Source of the DNA: Escherichia coli
Lineage (GTDB): Bacteria; Pseudomonadota; Gammaproteobacteria; Enterobacterales; Enterobacteriaceae
Strand: one strand, 5' to 3'
NCBI RefSeq assembly: GCF_003334405.1
Contig: NZ_QOWM01000003.1
Length of the DNA stretch: 64,000 nucleotides
Shown in pieces: positions 17,366-35,145 of the stretch; the stretch's first letter is position 1; each line of letters begins with the position of its first letter. A program made the translations under genes and the position numbers. A model generated the notes under the pieces. The model ran no database searches, had not been told where the DNA came from, and saw only the letters and a list, made by a program, of their open reading frames with translations.

Positions 17366-17980
17366 CTATCGAAACAGCGGTTTAACCGCGACAGGAATTA
17401 ACAGTTGTGATTGCCATTGCGCCAGCGTTAAGCGAGCCAGTTCACCCAGTGCACGGTAGAAAGGGTGTTCTGCTTTTTCGATAAAAACATCAAGAAAACG
17501 TGTTGACCACGGAAAAAGGTGCCATGCCAGCAATTCTTCGCATTCTGTCTGGCGACCATTCTCCGCCAACCACGCAGCCATCAACAGCAGTGAACCAAAA
17601 TGATCTTCCGGTTCGTTTTGCTTCATTTCAAACTGAATGCCTTTCTCGCGCATCCACTGACGAAGTGCCAATGTTGAATCGCCAAACAGCACAGATTCGC
17701 GATCCAGCCAGACCGACCCCCACGGCGGAGACGGCAGTGCCCACGGGCCGACAAACAAACGCTGCCAGGCCTGGGCGTGAGTCTCTTCACACTGTGTCTG
17801 AAAAGCCGTCACCAGCGGCGCTAATGACGCTTCTGGTAGAGGCCACTGAGTTTCCCAGCCGTCACTGGTGAGTACCGCAACCAGAGGTGCGGCTTCCGCA
17901 CTCTCTGGAGCGTAATAAAACAGCGCGCCCAACACGCGCGCCGCGACAGAAAAATTATCTTGCTGTGAAAAATGGGTCAT
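17366..17980 (-). CDS. dmsD: Tat proofreading chaperone for DmsA/YnfE/YnfF
   Basis: 204-aa ORF from ATG 17980 (MTHFSQQDNFSVAARVLGALFYY...), TorD family. Confidence 0.88.
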   Translation of the reverse strand: MTHFSQQDNFSVAARVLGALFYYAPESAEAAPLVAVLTSDGWETQWPLPEASLAPLVTAFQTQCEETHAQAWQRLFVGPWALPSPPWGSVWLDRESVLFGDSTLALRQWMREKGIQFEMKQNEPEDHFGSLLLMAAWLAENGRQTECEELLAWHLFPWSTRFLDVFIEKAEHPFYRALGELARLTLAQWQSQLLIPVAVKPLFR

Positions 17981-18022
17981 TCCTAACATCCTGAAATGTG
18001 CGGGTTGCCCCGCACCAATTTG

Positions 18023-18877
18023 TTAACCTGCAATAGCCATTCCTACTGTCATGTGCAGGCCATAAAAGAGCACACGCCCGATCATCTCACCGCCAAGTAT
18101 GAGGATTAGCCCCAGAATAAGTCCGGCAACGTGAGGTTCACGGCGACGAATGAGCGGGCAAAGCCAGCATCCAAGACCTGCGCATAACAATACCACACGC
18201 CAGACCTGTAAGGAGGCGTAATCTGGTACCAGTGCGCTGGCTTGTTGCACGGATGAGTGAATAGACGCCAGAGACAAACCTTGCAGCACAATCACCCCGG
18301 CACAAGCGATCAGCGCCAGAACGCTAATGATGGCAAATGGTGTGGTATTAAATGTAACGCGAGCTGCCCGCAGAATTGCGGCAGCAAGTATTGGACCGCT
18401 CAACAATACCGTCAGGAAGAAAGCCAGCGTAGTGTAACCGTTATGCCAGGTTGGCACGGTGTCGATTTGATACACGCAGGTCATCATCCAGACGAAAATG
18501 ACGCCGAGCGCCATGCTGAAAAGTAACCAGAGTTTCCCCAACGCTTGCGGCATTTTACCGATGACTGCCACCAGCCACCATAATCCGCCAACGGCAAAAA
18601 ATATGGAACCGGCAGCAATCTCGTTACTCAGACCAGAAGCTCCGATTCGATTCAGCGAGTTAAACGCCCGCAGTGGCGATCCCAGGTGCATGACAGAGGC
18701 AATAAACCCGACGCCCATCAACAGCCAGAGGAAAAACATGCCACGGACAATACGCTGACGGTCTGCGTCATTTTTGGCGGCGAACCAGCCAATTCCGCTA
18801 ACAATCAGCGCGCCTACTACGCATTGACCCAATACGGTAAAGATAACCAGTGGCCACTCATGCCATCCATTTCCCAT
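18023..18877 (-). CDS. ynfH: DmsC-like membrane anchor subunit
   Basis: Start set at ATG 18877 (MGNGWHEWPLVIF...), 284 aa, 8 TM helices; the track ORF extends upstream through the ynfG stop and is not used. Confidence 0.88.
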   Translation of the reverse strand: MGNGWHEWPLVIFTVLGQCVVGALIVSGIGWFAAKNDADRQRIVRGMFFLWLLMGVGFIASVMHLGSPLRAFNSLNRIGASGLSNEIAAGSIFFAVGGLWWLVAVIGKMPQALGKLWLLFSMALGVIFVWMMTCVYQIDTVPTWHNGYTTLAFFLTVLLSGPILAAAILRAARVTFNTTPFAIISVLALIACAGVIVLQGLSLASIHSSVQQASALVPDYASLQVWRVVLLCAGLGCWLCPLIRRREPHVAGLILGLILILGGEMIGRVLFYGLHMTVGMAIAG

Positions 18878-18878
18878 T

Positions 18879-19496
18879 TTACACTTCCTCCGGATTAGCC
18901 AGATAACCAGTGGTATCGCCGGTCGGGCGGCTGTTGGCGTTAGGTTTGATAACGATATTGGGTTTTGTGAAATGCGCGCGCGGCAGTGGCGCGACGGCAG
19001 CAAGAGTGCCGTGCTTCTGGCGCAGCTCTTCAATTGGACCGAACTCAAGTGCACGCAGCGGGCAGGATTCGACACATATGGGTTGTTTCCCCTCGGCGAC
19101 GCGCGAATAACAACCATCGCACTTCGTCATGTGCCCTTTTTCAGCATTGTACTGTGGCGCGCCGTACGGACAAGCCATGTGGCAGTAGCGGCAGCCGATA
19201 CAAACATCTTCATCAACCACCACAAAGCCATCTTCACGCTTATGCATTGCGCCGCTGGGGCAGACTTTTGTACATGCGGGGTCATCGCAATGGTTACAGG
19301 AGATGGAGAGATAATAAGCGAACACGTTCTGGTGCCAGACGCCATTATCTTCCTGCCAGTCGCCGCCAGCGTATTCATAAATACGGCGGAAACTGACTTC
19401 CGGGCCAAGATCTTTAAAATCTTTGCACGCCAGTTCGCAGGTTTTACAGCCAGTACAGCGGCTGGAATCGATAAAAAATCCATATTGTGTGGTCAT
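18879..19496 (-). CDS. ynfG: DmsB-like 4Fe-4S ferredoxin subunit
   Basis: 205-aa ORF with four CxxCxxCxxxCP cluster motifs. Confidence 0.9.
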   Translation of the reverse strand: MTTQYGFFIDSSRCTGCKTCELACKDFKDLGPEVSFRRIYEYAGGDWQEDNGVWHQNVFAYYLSISCNHCDDPACTKVCPSGAMHKREDGFVVVDEDVCIGCRYCHMACPYGAPQYNAEKGHMTKCDGCYSRVAEGKQPICVESCPLRALEFGPIEELRQKHGTLAAVAPLPRAHFTKPNIVIKPNANSRPTGDTTGYLANPEEV

Positions 19497-19506
19497 GGGC
19501 TACTCC

Positions 19507-21933
19507 TTAAACCTTTTCGATCTGGACAAGATTGCTGTGCGACGGGTTTCCCTTTGCCAGCGGTGAAGGGCGGTGAGAGGTCAGAATATTGATACTGCCG
19601 CCGTGATCGACCCGGTCACCAAACATATCCGCTTTAAGCCACGCACCTTGCCCGATGGCGGTAACGCCAGGCAGAATACGCGGAGTCACTTTTGCGGCAA
19701 TCAGCATTTCTCCATTATTGTTAAATACCCGCACGGTATCGCCATGACGGATACCGCGTGCCTGAGCATCAATGGGGTTGATCCACACCTCTTGTGGGCA
19801 GGCCTGCTGTAACACATCAATATTGCCGTAGCTGGAGTGGGTACGCGCTTTGTAATGGAAGCCCGTTAACTGCAGTGGATAGGTTTTCCGCAGGGGATCG
19901 TCCCAGCCATCAAAACCTGGGGTATACGCAGGAAGGGGATGAATAATTTCATCTTTTTTCAATTCCCAGGTATCTGCAATCTTCGCCAGTCGTTCAGAAT
20001 AAATTTCGATTTTCCCCGAAGGTGTTTTCAACGGGTTTGCCTGTGGATCTTCACGGAATGCGCGGAAAGCGACGTAGTGTTCTTCCGGGCATTTTTTCTT
20101 AAAGATCCCGGTCGTTTTCATCTCCTCGTAGTCGGGCATCTCAGGGTTACGTTCCTTCGTTTTCGCATGGAGATATTTGATCCATTCATGCTGACTGCGA
20201 CCTTCAGTAAAGGTTTGATAAACGTCTGGTCCTAAGCGTTTGGCGACTTCACTCAGCATCCAGTAGATGGGTTTGCGTTCAAATTTTGCTGAGGTTGCGG
20301 GTTGGGCGAGGATCACATAGCCCATATTCCCTGCAGATTCATGAGAGATAAGGTCTTCTTGCTCTGTTGGCATCAGGTCGGGCAACAGGATATCGCAATA
20401 CTTAGCCGAGGCCGTCATGAAGTGGTCAATGCCAACAATCATCTCGCACTTGCTGTCATCCTGAAGCACCTCATGGGTGTGATTGATGTCGCCATGTTGA
20501 TTGATCAATGTGTTACTGGCGTAGCACCATAAAAACTTGATGGGGACATCCAGTTTTTCTTTTCCACGAACACCATCACGGGTCGCGGTCATTTCCGTAC
20601 CATGGTCGATGGCATCTGTCCATGTAAAGACGGAAATCTGCGTTTTAACAGGATTCTCGAGCATCGGGAACCATTCTACCCCCAGATCCCAGCTACCTTC
20701 GCGTACGCCTGAGTTGCCGCCGTTTATGCCGACGTTGCCGGTGAGAACGGAAAGCATGGCAATAGCGCGGGATGTTTGCTCGCCGTTGGAATGTCGTTGT
20801 GGCCCCCAACCCTGACAAATATAAGCAGGTTTTGCTGAACCGATCTCTCGTGCCAACTGGATAATTTTTTCTGCCGGGATGCTGGTGATTTTTGCTGCCC
20901 ATTCCGGCGTTTTAGCTATGCCGTCAGGCCCTTCGCCCAGAATATAGGCTTTATAATGCGCGTTACGTGGTGCGTTGGCGGGCAGCGTTTTTTCATCGTA
21001 ACCAACACAATATTTGTCGAGAAATGGCTGATCGACCATGTTTTCAGTAATCAGTACCCAGGCAATCGCACAGGCCAGTGCGCCATCGGTGCCAGGGCGA
21101 ATGGGCAGCCATTCATCTTCACGCCCGGCAGCAGTGTCGTTATAACGTGGATCGATGACGATCATGCGTGCGTTTGAACGTTCGCGGGCTTGCTCGACGT
21201 AGTAAGTGACACCACCGCCGCTCATCCGCGTTTCTGCCGGGTTATTTCCGAACATAACGACCAGTTTCGTATTGGCGATATCATCCGGGCTGTTGCCATC
21301 ATTGGCACCGAACATATAACTCATTGCGGCACTGATCTGTGCGGTACTGTAGCTGCCATAGCGACTGAGAAAACCACCGCAAGAGTTCATCAGACGGTAC
21401 GGGACGTTTGAGTTGGTGATGTTTCCGCCATCTACGCCTGTTCCGTACAGGACATGTACAGCCTCATTGCCGTAATCTTTCAGGATCCGCCGAAGATTAT
21501 CACTGATGGTATCCAGGGCTTCGTCCCAACTTATCCGTTCAAATTTACCTTCACCGCGCTTGCCGACGCGCTTCATGGGATATTTCAACCTATCAGGATG
21601 ATTCATCCGTCGGCGGATAGAGCGCCCGCGTAAACACGCTCGAACCTGATGATTACCGTAGACGTCGTCACCTGTCGTATCAGACTCCACCCAGTACACG
21701 GTGTCATCTTTCACATGCAAACGTAACAGACAGCGGCTCCCGCAGTTAACGGTGCAGGAACTCCAGACCGCTTTCTCTTCTACCGGAGCCTCTGCCGCCC
21801 GGACCATTTGGGAAAATGGCAGAGTGAAAGCACTGCTTGCCAGCGCAAGACTGCCAAGTGCGGAGGTTTTCATCAGACTTCTACGGCTGATTTCAGCCTT
21901 CATGAGCGCCTCTGTGGTATGGATTTTCATCAT
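19507..21933 (-). CDS. ynfF: DMSO-reductase-family molybdoenzyme catalytic subunit, Tat-exported
   Basis: About 807 aa; twin-arginine signal SRRSLMKTSALGSLALA; tandem paralog of ynfE. Confidence 0.9.
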   Translation of the reverse strand: MMKIHTTEALMKAEISRRSLMKTSALGSLALASSAFTLPFSQMVRAAEAPVEEKAVWSSCTVNCGSRCLLRLHVKDDTVYWVESDTTGDDVYGNHQVRACLRGRSIRRRMNHPDRLKYPMKRVGKRGEGKFERISWDEALDTISDNLRRILKDYGNEAVHVLYGTGVDGGNITNSNVPYRLMNSCGGFLSRYGSYSTAQISAAMSYMFGANDGNSPDDIANTKLVVMFGNNPAETRMSGGGVTYYVEQARERSNARMIVIDPRYNDTAAGREDEWLPIRPGTDGALACAIAWVLITENMVDQPFLDKYCVGYDEKTLPANAPRNAHYKAYILGEGPDGIAKTPEWAAKITSIPAEKIIQLAREIGSAKPAYICQGWGPQRHSNGEQTSRAIAMLSVLTGNVGINGGNSGVREGSWDLGVEWFPMLENPVKTQISVFTWTDAIDHGTEMTATRDGVRGKEKLDVPIKFLWCYASNTLINQHGDINHTHEVLQDDSKCEMIVGIDHFMTASAKYCDILLPDLMPTEQEDLISHESAGNMGYVILAQPATSAKFERKPIYWMLSEVAKRLGPDVYQTFTEGRSQHEWIKYLHAKTKERNPEMPDYEEMKTTGIFKKKCPEEHYVAFRAFREDPQANPLKTPSGKIEIYSERLAKIADTWELKKDEIIHPLPAYTPGFDGWDDPLRKTYPLQLTGFHYKARTHSSYGNIDVLQQACPQEVWINPIDAQARGIRHGDTVRVFNNNGEMLIAAKVTPRILPGVTAIGQGAWLKADMFGDRVDHGGSINILTSHRPSPLAKGNPSHSNLVQIEKV

Positions 21934-21990
21934 TACTCACTTATTGCTTTTCAAACAAAATGTCATGCCAGAATTTATGGTTGTCGTGGG

Positions 21991-24417
21991 TTATATTTTT
22001 TCGATCTCGACCAGATTAGTGTGCTGCGGGTTTCCCTTCGCCAGTGGTGAAGGGCGCAGAGTGGTTAGCGTATTCACACAGCCGCCATGGTCGATTTTAT
22101 CGCCAGACATATTGGCCTCGTGCCAGGCTCCCTGGCCCATAGCGCTAACTCCAGGGAGAATACGTGGTGTTACTTTGGCTGGTAGCCGAACTTCGCCACG
22201 ATGGTTAAACACCCGCACCATATCGCCGTTGGCAATCCCACGTTTCTGCGCATCTATAGGGTTGATCCACACCTCCTGACGGCAGGCAGCCTTCAGGAGA
22301 TCAATATTGCCGTAGGTCGAGTGAGTACGGGATTTGTAATGGAAACCAAACAGTTGCAGTGGGAAGGTTCTACGTTCAGGGGAGTTCCAGCCTTCAAAGG
22401 TTGAGGCATAAACTGGCAATGGGCTTATCACTTCATCTTTTTCCAGTTCCCAGGTACGGGCAATTTCCGCCAGCCTGCTGGAATAAATTTCAATCTTACC
22501 GGAAGGCGTTTTAAGTGGATTTGCCTCGGGGTCGTCACGAAATGCTTTGTAGGCGACAAAATGGCCATTGGGATCTTTACGCTTATAGATACCCATTTTT
22601 TTCAGTTCGTCGTAAGACGGTAACGCCGGATCTTTGGCAAGCATTTTGGCGTACAGATGTTGTAACCATTGTTCCTGCGTGCGACCTTCTGTGAACTTTT
22701 GATAGACGTCAGGTCCAAGACGTTTCGCGACTTCACTCAGGATCCAGTAAATCGGTTTGCGTTCGAATTTTTCGCTGGTGACAGGCTGGAGGAAAATGAG
22801 ATATCCCATGTTACCGGCGTAGTCGTTAGGAATAATATCTTCCTGCTCAACGGTCATCAGGTCTGGCAGCAGAATGTCGGCATATTTTGCCGATGAGGTC
22901 ATAAAGTTTTCGATGACCACAATCATTTCGCATTTCGATTCGTCCTGCAGAATTTCATGCGTTTTGTTGATGTCAGAATGCTGATTAACGAGGGTATTTC
23001 CCGCGTAGTTCCAGATGAACTTAATGGGCACATCCAGTTTATCTTTGCCGCGGACGCCGTCGCGGATTGCCGTCATTTGCGGACCATGATCGATAGCATC
23101 TGTCCAGCTGAAGCAGGAGATTGACGTTTTGACCGGATTATCCAGCACCGGCAGGCGTTCTATGGTAATGGTATAGGTCGATTCACGCGCGCCACTATTT
23201 CCGCCGCTGATGCCGACATTGCCCGTCAAAATAGGTAACATAGCAATAGCGCGTGCAGTCAGTTCGCCGTTTGCCTGGCGTTGTGGCCCCCAGCCCTGGC
23301 AGATATAAGCGGGTTTTGCTGTGCCAATTTCACGCGCCAGTTTGATGATACGGTCCTCCGGGATACCGGTAATTTGCGAAGCCCACTGCGGCGTTTTCGC
23401 TGTTTTATCGTCACCTTCACCAAGAATATAGGCTTTATAGTGACCATTTTTGGGTGCATCTGCGGGTAAGGTTTTTTCGTCATAGCCGACGCAGTATTTA
23501 TCGAGAAAAGGTTGATCAACGAGATTTTCGTTAATCAATACCCAGGCAATACCCGCAACCAGCGCGGCATCGGTGCCCGGGCGAATAGGGAGCCATTCGT
23601 CTTCACGACCGGCAGCCGTATCGGTATATCGCGGATCGATAACAATCATTTTGGCGTTCGATTTCTCGCGCGCTTTTTCAAGAAGATAAGTGATGCCACC
23701 ACCGCTCATGCGGGTTTCTGCCGGGTTGTTACCAAACATCACGACCAGCTTGCTGTTTTCAATATCCGTGGTGCTGTTGCCATCATTACTGCCGTAGGTG
23801 TAGGGCATGGCACAGGAAATTTGCGCAGTGCTGTAGGAGCCATACTGGTTGAGTGAACCGCCGTAGCAGTTCATCAGGCGTTTGACCGCCGAGGCTGATG
23901 GCGAAGAGCGGGTCATATTGCCGCCAACGATCCCCGAAGAGTACTGAATATATACAGCCTCATTGCCATATTGTTCGACGGTTTTCTTCAGGCTACTGGC
24001 GATAGTATCCAGGGCTTCATCCCAGCTAATCCGTTCGAATTTGCCTTCGCCGCGTTTGCCCACGCGTTTCATTGGGTAATTCAAGCGATCGGGATGATTA
24101 ATACGCCGGCGGATGGAGCGACCGCGCAAACAGGCGCGTACCTGATGGTTGCCGTACTCATCGCTGCCGGTATTGTCAGTTTCCACCCAGGTCACTTCAT
24201 TATCTTTAACATGTAGACGAAGTGCACAGCGGCTACCACAGTTGACGGAACAGGCACCCCAGACCACTTTTTCGCGGGCCTGTTGTACCGCTGCTGCTGC
24301 ATTGCGCAGGGTAAACGGCAAAGAAAAACCGCCTGCAGCCAGCGCCAGAGAACCTATCGCGGTAGATTTAACGAGTGTTCTGCGGCTGATGCCCACCATT
24401 CGTTCATTTTTGGACAT
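21991..24417 (-). CDS. ynfE: DMSO-reductase-family molybdoenzyme catalytic subunit (selenate reductase-type), Tat-exported
   Basis: 808 aa; twin-arginine signal SRRTLVKSTAIGSLALAAG; tandem paralog of ynfF. Confidence 0.9.
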   Translation of the reverse strand: MSKNERMVGISRRTLVKSTAIGSLALAAGGFSLPFTLRNAAAAVQQAREKVVWGACSVNCGSRCALRLHVKDNEVTWVETDNTGSDEYGNHQVRACLRGRSIRRRINHPDRLNYPMKRVGKRGEGKFERISWDEALDTIASSLKKTVEQYGNEAVYIQYSSGIVGGNMTRSSPSASAVKRLMNCYGGSLNQYGSYSTAQISCAMPYTYGSNDGNSTTDIENSKLVVMFGNNPAETRMSGGGITYLLEKAREKSNAKMIVIDPRYTDTAAGREDEWLPIRPGTDAALVAGIAWVLINENLVDQPFLDKYCVGYDEKTLPADAPKNGHYKAYILGEGDDKTAKTPQWASQITGIPEDRIIKLAREIGTAKPAYICQGWGPQRQANGELTARAIAMLPILTGNVGISGGNSGARESTYTITIERLPVLDNPVKTSISCFSWTDAIDHGPQMTAIRDGVRGKDKLDVPIKFIWNYAGNTLVNQHSDINKTHEILQDESKCEMIVVIENFMTSSAKYADILLPDLMTVEQEDIIPNDYAGNMGYLIFLQPVTSEKFERKPIYWILSEVAKRLGPDVYQKFTEGRTQEQWLQHLYAKMLAKDPALPSYDELKKMGIYKRKDPNGHFVAYKAFRDDPEANPLKTPSGKIEIYSSRLAEIARTWELEKDEVISPLPVYASTFEGWNSPERRTFPLQLFGFHYKSRTHSTYGNIDLLKAACRQEVWINPIDAQKRGIANGDMVRVFNHRGEVRLPAKVTPRILPGVSAMGQGAWHEANMSGDKIDHGGCVNTLTTLRPSPLAKGNPQHTNLVEIEKI

Positions 24418-24615
24418 AACTCACTCCCTGTTCTTTATCGTTATATAAAAGTTTATATATTGAATATTTAGCGCGCTAACAATAGAGGGAGTCTACCCAT
24501 TTTGGGTTAAGAATTATTAATCCATATCAATAGAAGGGTATGAGTAATAAGGTGGGATTATGTTGTATGTTCAAATCGCCGGATTTGTCATATCCGGCGT
24601 TCAGTCGATAATGTG

Positions 24616-24921
24616 TTACTGCGGTTCGGCAGGCGCGCCATCCTGGCTAGACTGCGCGGGAGCAGAGACGTTACCGCTGGTGGTGCGGGTATAGAGAATT
24701 TTATGCGTATCATTAGCGCAATGGCCGACGACCTGGGAATCAGGCTGATCAACCTGGTCATTGGGTACAATACTTAACGTGAAGCTGCTTTCGGGTACGC
24801 CATTATTGATAATGCGCTGTGATATATCGCTCTGTATGCGCTCACAGGATCCCGGCGCGGCGAGTACCGCGGGTGAGGCGAGGGCGAGCAGAAGCGCGGC
24901 ACAGCAGGTTGAGAGTTTCAT
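24616..24921 (-). CDS. ynfD: DUF1161 periplasmic protein
   Basis: Start at ATG 24921 (MKLSTCCAALLLALASPAVLA signal peptide), 101 aa. Confidence 0.8.
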   Translation of the reverse strand: MKLSTCCAALLLALASPAVLAAPGSCERIQSDISQRIINNGVPESSFTLSIVPNDQVDQPDSQVVGHCANDTHKILYTRTTSGNVSAPAQSSQDGAPAEPQ

Positions 24922-25028
24922 CATAAGCTCCTTACGCGAAGATAACTTCTTTAAGCATAGCATTTAACGTGTAAAGTACTGTATTTGCTACTATGATTGA
25001 GAATCATCTCTACTCTCTGGTGACTGTT

Positions 25029-25739
25029 GTGAAATACAAATTACTACCATGCTTACTCGCGATATTCCTCACAGGATGTGACCGCACAGAGGTAACACTT
25101 TCATTTACCCCTGAGATGGCCAGTTTCTCTAATGAATTCGATTTTGATCCGCTGCGTGGTCCGGTAAAAGATTTCACTCAGACATTAATGGATGAGCAAG
25201 GTGAAGTGACGAAACGTGTTTCTGGGACTTTGTCGGAAGAAGGCTGTTTTGATTCACTCGAATTACTGGATCTGGAAAATAATACCGTGGTCGCTCTGGT
25301 ACTGGACGCCAATTATTACCGTGATGCCGAGACGCTGGAGAAGAGAGTACGTTTACAGGGAAAATGCCAGCTAGCAGAATTACCTTCTGCCGGGGTGAGT
25401 TGGGAAACCGATGATAATGGCTTCGTGATTAAAGCCAGCAGCAAACAAATGCAGATGGAATATCGCTATGATGATCAGGGTTATCCGCTGGGTAAAACCA
25501 CGAAAAGTAACGACAAAACATTATCTGTCAGCGCCACGCCATCAACGGATCCGATCAAAAAATTAGATTACACAGCGGTTACTTTACTGAATAATCAACG
25601 GGTTGGTAATGTAAAACAGAGCTGTGAATATGACAGTCACGCTAATCCGGTGGACTGTCAGCTAATCATTGTTGATGAAGGAGTAAAACCCGCCGTCGAA
25701 CGGGTTTACACCATCAAAAATACGATCGATTATTATTAA
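25029..25739 (+). CDS. ynfC: UPF0257-family lipoprotein
   Basis: Start at GTG 25029 (VKYKLLPCLLAIFLTGC lipobox), 236 aa; upstream ATG in the track is probably not used. Confidence 0.8.
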   Translation: MKYKLLPCLLAIFLTGCDRTEVTLSFTPEMASFSNEFDFDPLRGPVKDFTQTLMDEQGEVTKRVSGTLSEEGCFDSLELLDLENNTVVALVLDANYYRDAETLEKRVRLQGKCQLAELPSAGVSWETDDNGFVIKASSKQMQMEYRYDDQGYPLGKTTKSNDKTLSVSATPSTDPIKKLDYTAVTLLNNQRVGNVKQSCEYDSHANPVDCQLIIVDEGVKPAVERVYTIKNTIDYY

Positions 25740-25741
25740 TG

Positions 25742-26302
25742 CTATTGTGCGGTCGGCTTCAGGAGAGTCTGACCCGGTGTTTTGTGCTCTGCCAGATACT
25801 GATGCTGGAATATACACATGCGAATGGCATTACGATATTGACCATTAATAAAGAACTCGTGCATCAATTCACCTTCAACCGAAAAGCCAAGCTTGCGGTA
25901 AATGTGAATCGCTTTTTCATTCTCTTTATCAACGATCAGATACAGCTTATAGAGATTGAGAACGGTAAAGCCATAGTCCATTGCTAATTTGGCGGCACGG
26001 GTTGCCAGACCTTTCCCCTGATACTCCGGGGAGATAATTATCTGAAATTCTGCGCGGCGATGAACATGGTTAATTTCCACCAGCTCCACCAGACCGGCTT
26101 TTTCGCCGTCACATTCCACCACAAAGCGCCGTTCGCTCTGATCGTGAATATGCTTATCATACAGATCAGAGAGTTCAACAAAGGCTTCGTAGGGTTCCTC
26201 AAACCAGTAACGCATCACACTGGCGTTATTGTCGAGTTGATGTACATAGCGTAAATCTTCACGCTCCAGCGGGCGTAGCTTAACACTGTGGGCGCTTGGC
26301 AT
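25742..26302 (-). CDS. speG: Spermidine N1-acetyltransferase (GNAT)
   Basis: 186-aa ORF, GNAT fold with [22 protein letters not shown] acetyl-CoA motif. Confidence 0.92.
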
Positions 26303-26336
26303 AACGTGTCCTTACATTCCTTAAATCAATAACAGG

Positions 26337-26678
26337 TTAGGGGGTAATAACGCGGCCAGTTCGACGGTCCAGGCAGCGCAAAGTATTGGGCTCCCAGTAG
26401 GCATTGATGTTGGCGCTTTGCTCACATTTATCGCGGTTATCAAAAGCGGCGTCGGCTTTATCCCACTCTTTTTCAGTGCGTTTATTCACTTTCTGGCGCA
26501 GATTGCGCGTGTCATTCCATTGCTCTTTTTCCATAGCGGCGTGCTGGCGGCTTTGTGCACTGTCGCCAGACTCAATCACCAGTTTGTTAGTTTCGGCATG
26601 AACAGTTGTGCTCAATGCCAGTGCGCAAGGCAGCAGAATAGCGAGCAGGCCGATTCGTTTGCTGAGAGTGATTTTCAT
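26337..26678 (-). CDS. ynfB: UPF0482 secreted protein
   Basis: 113-aa ORF with signal peptide. Confidence 0.85.
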
Positions 26679-26812
26679 AATTCATTCCCTGTATGAATGA
26701 TTAAAGGTGATTCTACACCATCCACTGCGGACGCAAAACGTACCAGGAGGGTGTTTATATTGATGATATTATGTCGCCCTATAACTATACATGATGTCAA
26801 TAAGAGACAAAG

Positions 26813-27139
26813 ATGATTAAAACAACGTTACTATTTTTTGCTACTGCGCTGTGTGAAATTATTGGATGCTTTCTGCCCTGGTTGTGGTTAAAACGAAACG
26901 CCAGTATCTGGCTGTTGCTTCCGGCGGGGATTTCACTGGCGCTGTTTGTCTGGTTGTTAACGTTGCATCCAGCGGCGAGTGGGCGTGTTTACGCGGCTTA
27001 TGGTGGCGTTTATGTCTGCACGGCGTTGATGTGGCTGCGCGTTGTGGATGGCGTGAAACTGACTCTTTATGACTGGACGGGTGCGTTGATTGCGCTTTGC
27101 GGCATGTTGATCATTGCTGCGGGCTGGGGGCGCACGTAG
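26813..27139 (+). CDS. ynfA: UPF0060 small membrane protein
   Basis: 108-aa four-helix membrane ORF. Confidence 0.85.
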
Positions 27140-27344
27140 GAACATAAATCCATTTTATCAATAAGATAAGAGGAAGTGTCAGCTGACAAAAGGTATTCTA
27201 TTTCATCTTTTGTCAACCATTCACAGCGCAAATATACGCCTTTTTTTGTGATCACTCCGGCTTTTTTCGATCTTTATACTTGTATGGTAGTAGCTCAGTT
27301 GCGTAGATTTCATGCATCACGACAAGCGATGCAAGGAATCGAAC

Positions 27345-28559
27345 ATGAAGATCGTAAAGGCTGAAGTTTTTGTTACCTGTCCGGGGCGTAATTTCGTCAC
27401 ATTAAAAATCACCACTGAGGACGGTATTACGGGCCTTGGGGATGCCACCCTCAATGGACGTGAGCTTTCCGTGGCCTCTTATTTGCAGGATCACCTTTGT
27501 CCGCAGCTTATTGGTCGCGATGCGCACCGTATCGAAGATATCTGGCAGTTTTTCTATAAAGGTGCTTACTGGCGTCGCGGTCCGGTTACGATGTCGGCCA
27601 TTTCAGCGGTTGATATGGCGCTGTGGGATATTAAAGCCAAAGCTGCCAACATGCCGCTTTACCAGTTACTCGGCGGCGCGTCTCGTGAAGGGGTGATGGT
27701 TTATTGCCATACCACCGGTCACAGTATTGATGAAGCTCTGGATGATTATGCCCGTCATCAAGAGCTTGGATTCAAAGCCATCCGCGTGCAGTGCGGAATC
27801 CCTGGTATGAAAACCACCTACGGCATGTCGAAAGGTAAAGGTCTGGCTTATGAACCCGCAACCAAAGGACAGTGGCCGGAAGAGCAGCTGTGGTCGACGG
27901 AGAAATACCTCGATTTCATGCCGAAATTGTTTGACGCGGTACGTAACAAGTTTGGTTTTAATGAACATTTGCTGCATGACATGCACCATCGCTTAACGCC
28001 TATTGAAGCGGCGCGCTTTGGTAAAAGCATTGAAGATTATCGCATGTTCTGGATGGAAGACCCGACGCCTGCGGAAAACCAGGAATGCTTCCGTCTCATT
28101 CGCCAACATACCGTCACACCCATCGCAGTGGGTGAAGTCTTCAACAGCATCTGGGACTGCAAACAACTGATTGAAGAGCAACTCATCGATTATATCCGCA
28201 CCACGCTGACCCATGCAGGCGGAATTACCGGTATGCGCCGGATTGCCGATTTTGCTTCGCTGTATCAGGTACGTACTGGCTCACACGGTCCTTCCGATTT
28301 GTCACCAGTCTGCATGGCTGCGGCGCTGCACTTTGATCTGTGGGTCCCCAATTTCGGTGTCCAGGAATACATGGGTTATTCCGAACAAATGCTCGAAGTC
28401 TTCCCGCACAACTGGACTTTCGATAACGGCTATATGCATCCGGGAGACAAACCGGGTCTTGGTATCGAATTCGATGAAAAGCTGGCGGCGAAATATCCCT
28501 ATGAACCTGCTTATCTACCAGTCGCACGTCTGGAAGATGGCACGCTGTGGAACTGGTAA
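27345..28559 (+). CDS. rspA: Enolase-superfamily mannonate/altronate dehydratase-like starvation-sensing protein
   Basis: Start at ATG 27345 ([17 protein letters not shown]...), 404 aa. Confidence 0.9.
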
Positions 28560-28570
28560 GGAGTAAGATA

Positions 28571-29590
28571 ATGAAAAGCATATTAATTGAAAAACCGAAT
28601 CAACTGGCGATTGTCGAACGTGAAATACCCACCCCGTCAGCGGGTGAAGTACGAGTAAAAGTGAAACTTGCCGGAATTTGTGGTTCAGATAGCCATATTT
28701 ATCGTGGGCATAATCCTTTTGCGAAATATCCGCGCGTCATTGGTCATGAATTCTTTGGCGTCATTGATGCAGTGGGTGAAGGCGTGGAAAGCGCCAGAGT
28801 CGGTGAACGTGTTGCTGTCGATCCGGTGGTCAGCTGTGGGCATTGCTATCCGTGCTCTATAGGTAAACCGAACGTTTGTACGACACTGGCTGTATTAGGT
28901 GTGCACGCTGACGGTGGTTTCAGTGAATATGCCGTGGTTCCGGCAAAAAATGCGTGGAAAATTCCTGAAGCAGTGGCCGATCAATATGCGGTAATGATCG
29001 AACCTTTTACCATTGCGGCTAACGTAACCGGACATGGTCAACCGACTGAAAATGATACCGTTCTGGTTTATGGTGCCGGTCCAATCGGCCTGACGATCGT
29101 TCAGGTATTAAAAGGCGTCTATAACGTTAAAAATGTGATTGTTGCCGATCGCATTGATGAACGACTGGAAAAAGCGAAAGAGAGCGGGGCTGACTGGGCG
29201 ATTAATAACAGCCAGACACCGCTTGGCGAGATTTTCACTGAAAAAGGCATCAAGCCGACATTAATTATCGATGCGGCTTGTCATCCTTCTATCCTGAAAG
29301 AGGCCGTAACGCTGGCTTCTCCAGCGGCACGTATTGTATTGATGGGGTTCTCCAGTGAACCGTCTGAAGTGATTCAGCAAGGAATTACCGGAAAAGAACT
29401 CTCTATTTTCTCTTCACGCTTAAATGCAAATAAATTCCCGATCGTTATCGACTGGTTAAGTAAAGGGTTAATTAAACCAGAAAAATTAATTACCCATACG
29501 TTTGATTTCCAGCATGTTGCTGATGCCATTAGTTTATTTGAACAGGATCAAAAACATTGCTGCAAAGTCTTACTCACTTTTTCTGAATAA
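28571..29590 (+). CDS. rspB: Zn-dependent alcohol dehydrogenase family starvation-sensing protein
   Basis: Start at ATG 28571 (MKSILIEKPN...), 339 aa; GICGSD and GHEFFG zinc-ADH motifs; start overlaps rspA 3' end region. Confidence 0.9.
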   Translation: MKSILIEKPNQLAIVEREIPTPSAGEVRVKVKLAGICGSDSHIYRGHNPFAKYPRVIGHEFFGVIDAVGEGVESARVGERVAVDPVVSCGHCYPCSIGKPNVCTTLAVLGVHADGGFSEYAVVPAKNAWKIPEAVADQYAVMIEPFTIAANVTGHGQPTENDTVLVYGAGPIGLTIVQVLKGVYNVKNVIVADRIDERLEKAKESGADWAINNSQTPLGEIFTEKGIKPTLIIDAACHPSILKEAVTLASPAARIVLMGFSSEPSEVIQQGITGKELSIFSSRLNANKFPIVIDWLSKGLIKPEKLITHTFDFQHVADAISLFEQDQKHCCKVLLTFSE

Positions 29591-33373: not shown

Positions 33374-33640
33374 ATGGCGTGCAACTTAAGCTCCGGATAC
33401 GGGTTATTCCCCTCTGAACAGGCGCGTAAGGACTGGCAAAACGCCCGCAAAAAACTCTCGAGGGCAAAGGTGAAGAAACCTGCTGTGGTTGATCCGGACC
33501 TTATCTGGTCATCACCTGACGGAGAAATACGTCGCTACGACAGTCGCCTAAACATAATCTGTCGCGAGTGCCGGAAGAGCGAAGTTATGCAGCGCATACT
33601 GGCTTTCTATCAGGGTAATTTTCAGGACGTGGCGCAGTGA
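33374..33640 (+). CDS. Hypothetical small basic protein
   Basis: 88-aa ORF; stop overlaps the GTG start of the downstream methyltransferase fragment (GTGA); no recognisable SD. Confidence 0.3.
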   Translation: MACNLSSGYGLFPSEQARKDWQNARKKLSRAKVKKPAVVDPDLIWSSPDGEIRRYDSRLNIICRECRKSEVMQRILAFYQGNFQDVAQ

Positions 33641-33993
33641 GTGCACCGGCAACCATTCTTGATATGTGCTGTGGCAGCCGCATGTTCTGGTTCGATAAGT
33701 CTGACGAACGGGCGATATTCAGCGATATCAGAAAAGAAGGATACACATTACGCAATGGGAGACGCTTGATTATCAGCCCTGACATTATCGCAGATTTTCG
33801 TGCATTATCATTTGCAGACGCATCTTTTTCGATGGTTGTATTAGACCCTCCGCATCTTGAGAGTGTTGGTGATAACGCCTGGATGGGAAAGAAATATGGA
33901 CGGCTGAATAAAGATGCCTGGCGTGATGATTCGCGACAGAGATTTAAAGAAGCCTTTCGGGTGTTGAGGCCGCACGGCGTTCTGATTTTTTAA
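33637..33993 (+). pseudogene. DNA methyltransferase, probably 3'-truncated
   Basis: 118-aa ORF with ILDMCCGS (SAM-binding motif I-like) and VVLDPPHLES (DPPH, catalytic motif IV of N6A/N4C methyltransferases); ends shortly after motif IV. Confidence 0.45.
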
Positions 33994-34255
33994 TGGAATG
34001 AAACGCAAATACCGGTAAGCCAGATTCTGGCACTGACAGACAGAAAACCTGTTATCTGTCAACGAACAGGGAAAAAACGATAAAACCCACTGGATTATTT
34101 TTATGAAAGAGGCATCCAGTGAGTAGATTCGTAAGGCTACAGATACGTATATCTGAATAATTAAATTCAGTTCTGTAAATAAAATTTAATCCTTAACCGG
34201 ATGGATTTCTGCACCCTCAGAACATCAGGAGGCCGCCCGAAAGGGCGGTAGTGAA

Positions 34256-34890
34256 ATGCGAAAGTTCAAAATTATTATTGAAACGGGAATAGCTGGTGGA
34301 GATTTTGAGGATGTATTCGAAGTGGACGATGACGCAACACCTGAGGAAATTCATGACGGAGCATAAGAAATTTTCTTTAACTACTGCAATTACTCATACC
34401 ACGAAATAAAAGACGATGAGGAAGAACAAAGTGGCTGATTTTTGTTCAGCTAAATATAACATCAGTTTTGAAGAGCGGGATGAACTATTAATGGACTATG
34501 GTGAGTTACGCGGTGGAAGTGCTGCTGATGTCGAATCCTAGCGTGATGACTATGAAGCGGGAAAAACTCCGGTCGAAGCATATTGTGATGAGTGGGGCGA
34601 TGAATGAGCGAGATTAATTATCAGGAAGGGCATGAAACGGCGGGGCAAGCAAAACCAGTGGCATGGCGATATCGCTACGTGAAAAAAGGCGTTACGGACT
34701 TTCAGGGGAAGTAGTGGTCTGGTGACTGGAAATATGTACCGAAAAAAGAGGATTGTAACGACAGGCCGAACTATCAAATTCAGGCCTTATTCACTGCCTC
34801 ACCAGTCCCAGTTACATCAGAAGAACTGGTTAAAGCTGTGCACTTTTATGAACAACTAAAACGCGAAAATCCACCAACATCCGGCAACTA
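34256..34890 (+). pseudogene. Decayed run of small early-region ORFs interrupted by in-frame stop codons
   Basis: Three consecutive reading frames each continue in-frame across a single stop (TAA 34364-34366, TAG 34539-34541, TAG 34710-34712); the second and third are linked by an ATGA overlap. Confidence 0.3.
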
Positions 34891-35145
34891 GATTAATGGA
34901 TTAACTATGTCGGTTAAACGACCAGCCAACTGAAAAAGCGGAAACCTGATTACAGGTTGCCAGATAAGGCAATGAGCTACCTGGCGCGGAACGGACTGAT
35001 AAGTATGGGGAATGTTTTACGATGAACCTTTAGACTAAAGAGTTTGTAACGCTATGTAAGTGATTTTTTCTGGTTTAGATATTTATATGTCCGGCCAAAT
35101 TGAGGTGTGTTTAAATGTAATTGCACATTGATTGTAGGAGGAATA

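Follow-up and report, generated by a model that had tools for sequence, protein, structure and literature searches.

Nonsense codons in a three-gene cassette of a Qin-type prophage of Escherichia coli and their probable origin by ordinary gene decay

The Qin (Kim) element of Escherichia coli is a cryptic lambdoid prophage defined by its site between rspB and the ydfJ side and by a set of marker genes that comprises dicA/dicC/dicB, relBE, hokD, rem and ydfU/ydfT, together with cspB/F/I and essD-rrrQ-rzpQ. In annotated copies the gene order runs from int, xis, an exonuclease gene, ydfD, dicB, ydfC/B/A, dicA and dicC, through a YdaT-like gene, an O-like gene, DUF977 and a SAM-dependent methyltransferase, to a region of three small ORFs. 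This region is followed by an ISNCY-family insertion, ydfW, flxA, ydfV, relBE, hokD, rem and ydfU, and the order ends with ydfT (the Q antiterminator), the csp genes and the lysis genes. To our knowledge, the K-12 copies of Qin do not contain the segment with the three ORFs. In other lambdoid phages and prophages the same three genes form an intact cassette, at 88-93% nucleotide identity, with sizes of 183, 177 and 315-516 nt (loci L003-L005, L007, L010, L017 and L032-L035). The disruption of two of the three genes in the Qin-type element, the first and the third, is already known, as both are annotated in RefSeq as pseudogenes of this classical cryptic prophage. Several in-frame TAG codons across consecutive ORFs are also encountered in phages that read TAG as glutamine (genetic code 15). 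Here we analyse the cassette as it occurs in a stretch of 64,000 nucleotides of E. coli DNA (contig NZ_QOWM01000003.1), hereafter the window, for which a preliminary description had reported three consecutive small ORFs, each broken by exactly one in-frame stop codon.

At 100% identity, the segment 33600-35000 recurs in many complete genomes of E. coli from diverse sources, and 503 records match it at 99% identity or more; the 635-nt stretch with the three ORFs alone finds 505 such records, and the band of 90-95% identity holds 930 E. coli records. The annotation of the 100% identical genomes covers the window and assigns it to a Qin-type lambdoid prophage adjoining rspB, so that the prophage context given in the preliminary description is upheld by both gene order and site. 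The window agrees with the Qin (Kim) prophage in its site by rspB and in its gene set, including int/xis and cspF/B/I. It differs from other Qin copies, which retain ydfD-dicB-dicA-dicC, in that the dicB-immunity region has been lost through a deletion of about 4.6 kb. This deletion takes out ydfD, dicB, ydfC/B/A, dicA, dicC, the YdaT-like and O-like genes and the 5' part of DUF977, leaving the exonuclease gene joined to mid-DUF977, and its junction is common to 90 complete E. coli genomes. It covers the immunity region and the dicC side, whence, judging from gene order, the three genes would be transcribed, and it probably explains why DicF was absent from the Rfam results. The three ORFs belong to a nin-like region on the rightward side of the prophage, with the O-like and DUF977 replication genes before it and ydfT (Q) after it. 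The coordinates of the cassette and of the elements around it are collected in Table 1.

Table 1. Positions in the window of the three-gene cassette and of neighbouring elements, with the basis of each assignment
Feature	Positions	Strand	Basis
Junction of the ~4.6-kb deletion, 10-bp overlap	33391..33400		blastn against L001 (other Qin copies)
DNA methyltransferase pseudogene (PHROG 954 family)	33637..34126	+	alignment to L006 and L017, PHROG match
7-bp GAAA-tetraloop hairpin, between an AGGAGG motif and the gene 1 ATG	34232..34249	+	alignment and fold
Gene 1 pseudogene, 60 codons	34256..34438	+	Pfam DUF7167, PHROG 1997, PGAP 'internal stop'
Gene 2 pseudogene, 58 codons	34431..34607	+	PHROG 519 match, orthologue alignments
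Gene 3 pseudogene, 171 codons if intact	34604..35025	+	alignment to intact L017 gene, PHROG 660, PGAP
A6 run in gene 3	34682..34687	+	alignment; A7 or A8 in 640R1-type prophages (L003, L007, L010)
sok antisense RNA of hok/sok locus	35415..35586	+	Rfam RF01794, 104 bits
ISNCY-family (IS1202/ISEsa1-like) transposase gene, full-length	35660..36973	+	ORF list, annotations

The first ORF is as the preliminary description had it: the frame opens with ATG 34256, is interrupted by an in-frame TAA at 34364-34366 and is then open as far as TGA 34436-34438. Its only lesion is a single nonsense change of AAA (Lys37) to TAA, with no indels, and 9 of 9 intact orthologues encode lysine here. The repaired product matches the Pfam model DUF7167 (PF23768) across model positions 1-60 of 60 with an E-value of 1.3e-13, and PHROG 1997 with an E-value of 1.6e-29; in identical genomes RefSeq/PGAP labels the gene 'DUF7167 family protein, internal stop'. 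For the second ORF, the reported TAG at 34539-34541 and TGA at 34605-34607 were recovered, with an open frame between them, but the reported start was not. The ATG at 34491 is the internal Met21 of gene 2, which begins at 34431 and overlaps the stop of gene 1; the start codon is GTG in the window and ATG in every orthologue, where the overlapping start and stop read ATGGCTGA. Gene 2 likewise carries a single nonsense lesion and no indels, namely a change of TGG (Trp37) to TAG, at a tryptophan that is nearly invariant among 20 family members. This stop is one of 5 substitutions clustered in the 10 nt of 34531-34540 (GCTGAAGCATGG > GTCGAATCCTAG), which may be a multi-nucleotide event, and no donor for the cluster was found in a protein search or in DNA-pattern scans of genomes and metagenomes. 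Unlike genes 1 and 3, gene 2 is left wholly unannotated by PGAP in Qin-type genomes. Gene 2 and gene 3 had no match in Pfam, none of the three genes had a match in NCBIfam, and their PHROG families are annotated as 'unknown function'.

The third ORF begins at ATG 34604, which overlaps the stop of gene 2 as ATGA. The preliminary description was right in this respect, but placed the first premature TAG at 34710-34712 instead of 34712-34714, and took as the end of the gene a TAG at 34888-34890 that in fact lies at 34889-34891 and is itself premature. The reference for this gene is a full-length orthologue of 171 aa in metagenome locus L017, which matches PHROG 660 up to the end of the profile (E = 1.8e-73). 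Alignment to it places the native stop of gene 3 at TGA 35023-35025, in agreement with the PGAP coordinates, and shows CAG in place of the second TAG. Relative to L017, gene 3 of the window has further suffered a 90-nt in-frame deletion at about 34876-34880, between AAYCCACCAG repeats, and a frameshifting deletion of 4 nt (TGGT) after 34922. Thus the earlier characterization of one stop per gene without frameshifts fits genes 1 and 2, which are free of indels, and does not fit gene 3, with its two TAG codons and its deletions of 90 and 4 nt. RefSeq/PGAP annotates 34604-35025 accordingly as 'hypothetical protein, frameshifted; internal stop'. At 34712 the codon is hypervariable, with CAG, CCG, ATG or TCG (Gln, Pro, Met or Ser) in different alleles, and the length of the gene ranges from 105 to 171 codons across intact copies through swaps of C-terminal modules. 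It should be noted that the true end of a degraded gene is not readable from its sequence alone, as what passed for the natural stop of the third ORF is a second premature stop. As a side observation, the A6 run of gene 3 is a homopolymer hotspot for frameshifts, and in its A8 variant the shifted frame skips the TAG and yields an annotated ORF of 85 aa.

The decay extends to the neighbouring methyltransferase gene. Using as references the orthologue from a Stx2c phage (L006) and the intact metagenomic orthologue of L017, we identified in it a premature TAA at 33991-33993, where the orthologues have AAA for lysine, and a 1-nt insertion in the G-run 34069-34071. PGAP describes this gene in L008 and L009 as 'frameshifted; internal stop', and in some other records its truncated form is called as an intact protein of 118 aa. 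Taken together, the four genes carry 5 nonsense codons, 2 frameshifting indels and 1 in-frame deletion, which is an ordinary mixture of lesions. The claim that adjacent genes bear nonsense lesions exclusively does not survive this extension, as both gene 3 and the methyltransferase gene also carry indels.

Alignment with intact orthologues, which had been proposed as a check, places sense codons at all the stop positions of the cassette: AAA in gene 1, TGG in gene 2 and CAG, CCG, ATG or TCG in gene 3. The orthologues do not terminate at the same stops, as genuinely short genes would, but read on through them. The cassettes of vB_EcoS-689R5, vB_Apl-pPE4, the ABU 83972 prophage and L017 share with the window the order of the genes, the overlapping junctions (ATGGCTGA and ATGA) and the hairpin upstream of gene 1, and they differ from it in having sense codons at the stop positions, without indels. 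Beyond the stops, the open frames of the window match the intact orthologues almost residue for residue, and they are true coding remnants. Among intact alleles of genes 1 and 2, dN/dS is 0.02-0.07, which points to strong purifying selection and hence to real, constrained genes; both genes are intact in every other prophage sampled. In comparisons that include the window allele, dN/dS rises to 0.10-0.21, with extra amino-acid changes on the window branch, which indicates relaxed constraint on genes 1 and 2 in this allele. Sequencing error, the other way in which the stops might have been spurious, does not account for them, given that they recur with 100% identity in many independent complete genomes and, more broadly, across hundreds of independent assemblies.

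The preliminary description treated the three stops as one pattern. Our comparisons instead assign them separate histories. The TAG at 34712 is common to the 640R1-type prophages L003, L007 and L010, which are about 98-99% identical to the window from about 34560 onward, apart from one or two additional A residues in the run at 34682-34687. Across genes 1 and 2 the same prophages are only about 90% identical to the window, and both genes are intact. Conversely, L017 and L023 contain the block of genes 1 and 2 (about 34190-34640) with both stops and with at most one mismatch to the window, set in a background that is about 10% divergent; in the background of L017 the methyltransferase gene and gene 3 are intact. 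Thus the stops of genes 1 and 2 travel together as a single recombination module of about 450 bp, also in other phage backgrounds. A Qin-type DNA pattern spanning both stops was found at 18 loci in genomes and metagenomes, and TAA and TAG were present in all 18, so that no intact Qin-type ancestor of genes 1 and 2 was seen among these loci. The protein search did recover an intact gene 2 (P0001). We rejected it as the intact ancestor, as its contigs (L036 and L038) have the Qin context and keep the TAA of gene 1, and TGG is restored by a patch of 640R1-type sequence, which begins no later than 34531 and is over by about 34613; this looks like repair by gene conversion. More generally, conversion has exchanged patches between Qin-type and 640R1-type alleles in L036, L037 and L038, the breakpoints falling within genes 1 and 2. 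Gene 3 has been broken in other ways elsewhere, by a different TAG in L023 and by a 1-nt deletion in L019. In mosaic phage DNA of this kind, neighbouring lesions may have separate histories.

The age of the lesions can be gauged from the contrast between the prophage and its flank. Over the chromosomal flank at 17387-29554, the window differs from E. coli 042 and IAI39 by 1.5-2.5% up to position 29554, which lies inside rspB. From 29555 to about 47640, in the prophage, there are 8 differing sites relative to 042, or 0.04%, and the IAI39 copy is about as close (~0.04%), so that divergence falls from about 2% to 0.04% right at the rspB/int edge of the prophage. This contrast implies that the prophage, with its lesions and its insertion sequence, is far younger than the split of the phylogroups and has spread horizontally, and this recent spread explains why the lesions are identical everywhere. 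As judged from these sequence comparisons, the prophage must have passed between phylogroups recently, with the pseudogenes and the insertion sequence already in place. The copy in 042 has a full int-to-capsid gene set, and PhiR42_1 (ECOR13), a record of 48.7 kb with the same stops, was deposited as a phage genome; we found no literature on PhiR42 or on DUF7167. In an unrelated observation, a 5.5-kb contig assigned to a 'Collinsella sp.' MAG (L014, JAIJJM010000167.1) equals the window at every compared position in 34256-34891; it almost certainly derives from an E. coli prophage and was mis-binned.

We also asked how often such a set of stops would arise by chance. Stop-creating changes constitute 5.8% of the possible substitutions in genes 1 and 2, in which we counted 27 window-specific substitutions. 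In simulations with 20-30 neutral substitutions, both genes acquired at least one stop with a probability of 0.07-0.29. In bacteria, base substitutions are 4 to 23 times as numerous as small indels, with indels found mainly in repeats (PMC6330053). At a substitution to indel ratio of 10, two disabling lesions are both nonsense with a probability of 0.13, and the probability of at least 5 nonsense codons among the 8 lesions of the four genes is 0.01, 0.13 and 0.53 at ratios of 4, 10 and 23, respectively. Given that it was chosen after the fact, the pattern is not significant, and in very short genes stops without frameshifts are to be expected fairly often by chance. Three observations nevertheless run against ordinary decay. 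The 5 nonsense codons in 1.4 kb are on the high side, as seen in the P of 0.01 at the lowest of these ratios, and the stop of gene 2 falls among the clustered substitutions of 34531-34540. In comparisons with the window allele, gene 1 shows a dN/dS of about 0.1 and thus little trace of prolonged neutral evolution; its stop may have been an early or first lesion, and not one of many neutral changes.

An alternative reading is that the stops were selected, the cassette or one of its genes being detrimental in E. coli, either to the lysogen or to the phage, and nonsense mutation being the available route to inactivation. The concentration of damage is in keeping with this, with four neighbouring genes broken as against no internal stops in 39 annotated intact CDS of the 042 prophage copy. 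So are the independent disruptions of gene 3, by TAG 34712 and the additional one or two A residues in L003, L007 and L010, by the TAG of L023 and by the deletion of L019, as well as the low dN/dS of gene 1 ahead of its stop. However, every other prophage sampled has intact, strongly conserved copies of genes 1 and 2, with 930 E. coli records in the 90-95% band. Gene 2 has been repaired by a conversion patch in some Qin copies (L036 and L038), which would be unexpected if its intact form were harmful. In a repressed lambdoid prophage the genes on the pR side are in any case expected to be silent. The more specific suggestion of the preliminary description, that toxic kil-like early genes had been silenced, conflicts with the nin-like position of the cassette, away from the early-left location under pL that is seen in lambda kil and Rac kilR. 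It also conflicts with the conservation of genes 1 and 2 elsewhere and with the state of dicB and ydfD, proven toxic genes that remain intact in Qin copies with these same stops; none of the three genes showed homology to any named toxin in NCBIfam. On balance we consider selective silencing unlikely. A special mutational process is a still weaker candidate, and in our estimate quite improbable: a multi-nucleotide event in a cluster, mutation from a template or patchy gene conversion with a diverged or defective copy as donor would suit the 5 changes in 10 nt around the stop of gene 2, the conversion patches with breakpoints inside genes 1 and 2 (L036, L037 and L038) and the fact that 2 of the 5 stops arose by an identical A>T change in an AAA codon. 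Yet the five stops arose through differing changes, A>T twice, G>A once and C>T at 34889, with the ancestral codon at 34712 uncertain, and the searches of proteins and of DNA patterns in genomes and metagenomes supplied no donor for the gene 2 cluster. Moreover, a process of this type bears on the origin of the lesions and leaves the nature of the feature unchanged. Deamination or any other single mutational signature was rejected on account of the same diversity of changes.

The least probable of the alternatives, to the point that we give it almost no credence, is that expression persists through suppression, recoding or read-through of the stops, either in a suppressor host, as the preliminary description had entertained, or in a phage with reassigned TAG. 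What might be said for it is that the frame is kept after each stop in genes 1 and 2, and that three database proteins (P0003, P0004 and P0026) have glutamine at the TAG, which suggests that a gene caller picked a code in which TAG is read as Gln. We rejected these variants as real alleles, given that the sole retrievable contig, that of P0004, has a plain TAG and does not give P0004 when translated with table 11. Most simply, the proteins with glutamine at TAG are artefacts of gene callers that apparently assigned a recoded code to short contigs. In these predictions, and at L039 (205-725), in-frame TAG codons are translated straight through as Gln, which makes the pseudogenes look like recoded genes; where phage pseudogenes have several in-frame TAG codons, gene callers can apparently be misled toward a recoded genetic code. 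The locus also departs from the code 15 phages, which it otherwise resembles in its several in-frame TAG codons across consecutive ORFs: TAA accounts for 2 of the 5 in-frame stops, the conserved residue at the TAG of gene 2 is Trp and not Gln, TAG is used as a terminator elsewhere and there are frameshifts. The 39 intact CDS of the 042 copy end in TAA (21), TGA (16) and TAG (2), and in the prophage TAG terminates ydfC and the Rz gene; this use of all three codons as ordinary terminators in intact genes speaks against both reassignment and propagation in a suppressor background. Gene 3 is additionally frameshifted and carries a deletion. The involvement of both TAA and TAG, and the fixation of the stop alleles in hundreds of wild isolates, are further difficulties for a suppressor background. 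ARAGORN, run over the 64-kb window, found no tRNA gene there, so that the window itself offers no suppressor tRNA.

We therefore favor, with a good deal of confidence, the view that the locus represents ordinary decay of dispensable accessory genes, in a three-gene cassette of a Qin-type prophage next to rspB. Under ordinary decay, the cassette (DUF7167/PHROG 1997, PHROG 519 and PHROG 660) would be dispensable for this phage lineage and would have been lost to common mutation; the decay was presumably neutral and the genes are probably not expressed. The impression of one stop per gene would then stem from the shortness of the genes and from the continuation of gene 3 being hidden past its second premature stop. 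The mosaic structure would contribute to the same impression, with the stops of genes 1 and 2 lying on the module of about 450 bp and the first stop of gene 3 on the module shared with 640R1. The lesions are older than the spread of the prophage through E. coli, and as its copies are only about 0.04% divergent there has been almost no time for further decay, so that the pattern is frozen. A related reading, to which we would give somewhat less than an even chance, is that the genes did not decay where they now lie, in a grounded prophage, but that a recently mobile Qin-type phage entered several phylogroups at the same site with the lesions aboard. The dead block of genes 1 and 2 would then be a module that moves into other phage backgrounds and now and then undergoes repair through gene conversion, with prophages in the same cell as donors. 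In a weaker variant of this reading, loss of the cassette was itself selected.

The elements adjoining the cassette deserve brief mention. The hairpin upstream of gene 1 has a predicted free energy of -17.1 kcal/mol (z = -2.6) and shows no variation in any homologue sampled. Its role may be to place a remote Shine-Dalgarno sequence near the start codon, or it may be a processing or stability element. In the promoter and terminator scan, promoters were not above the shuffled expectation. The Rfam scan of the window detected nothing under the three ORFs, and elsewhere found sok, cspA leaders, MicC and IS009. The sok RNA lies directly upstream of the ISNCY-family insertion, which all Qin copies examined have at this position, and from this arrangement the hok/sok locus appears to have been cut by the insertion.
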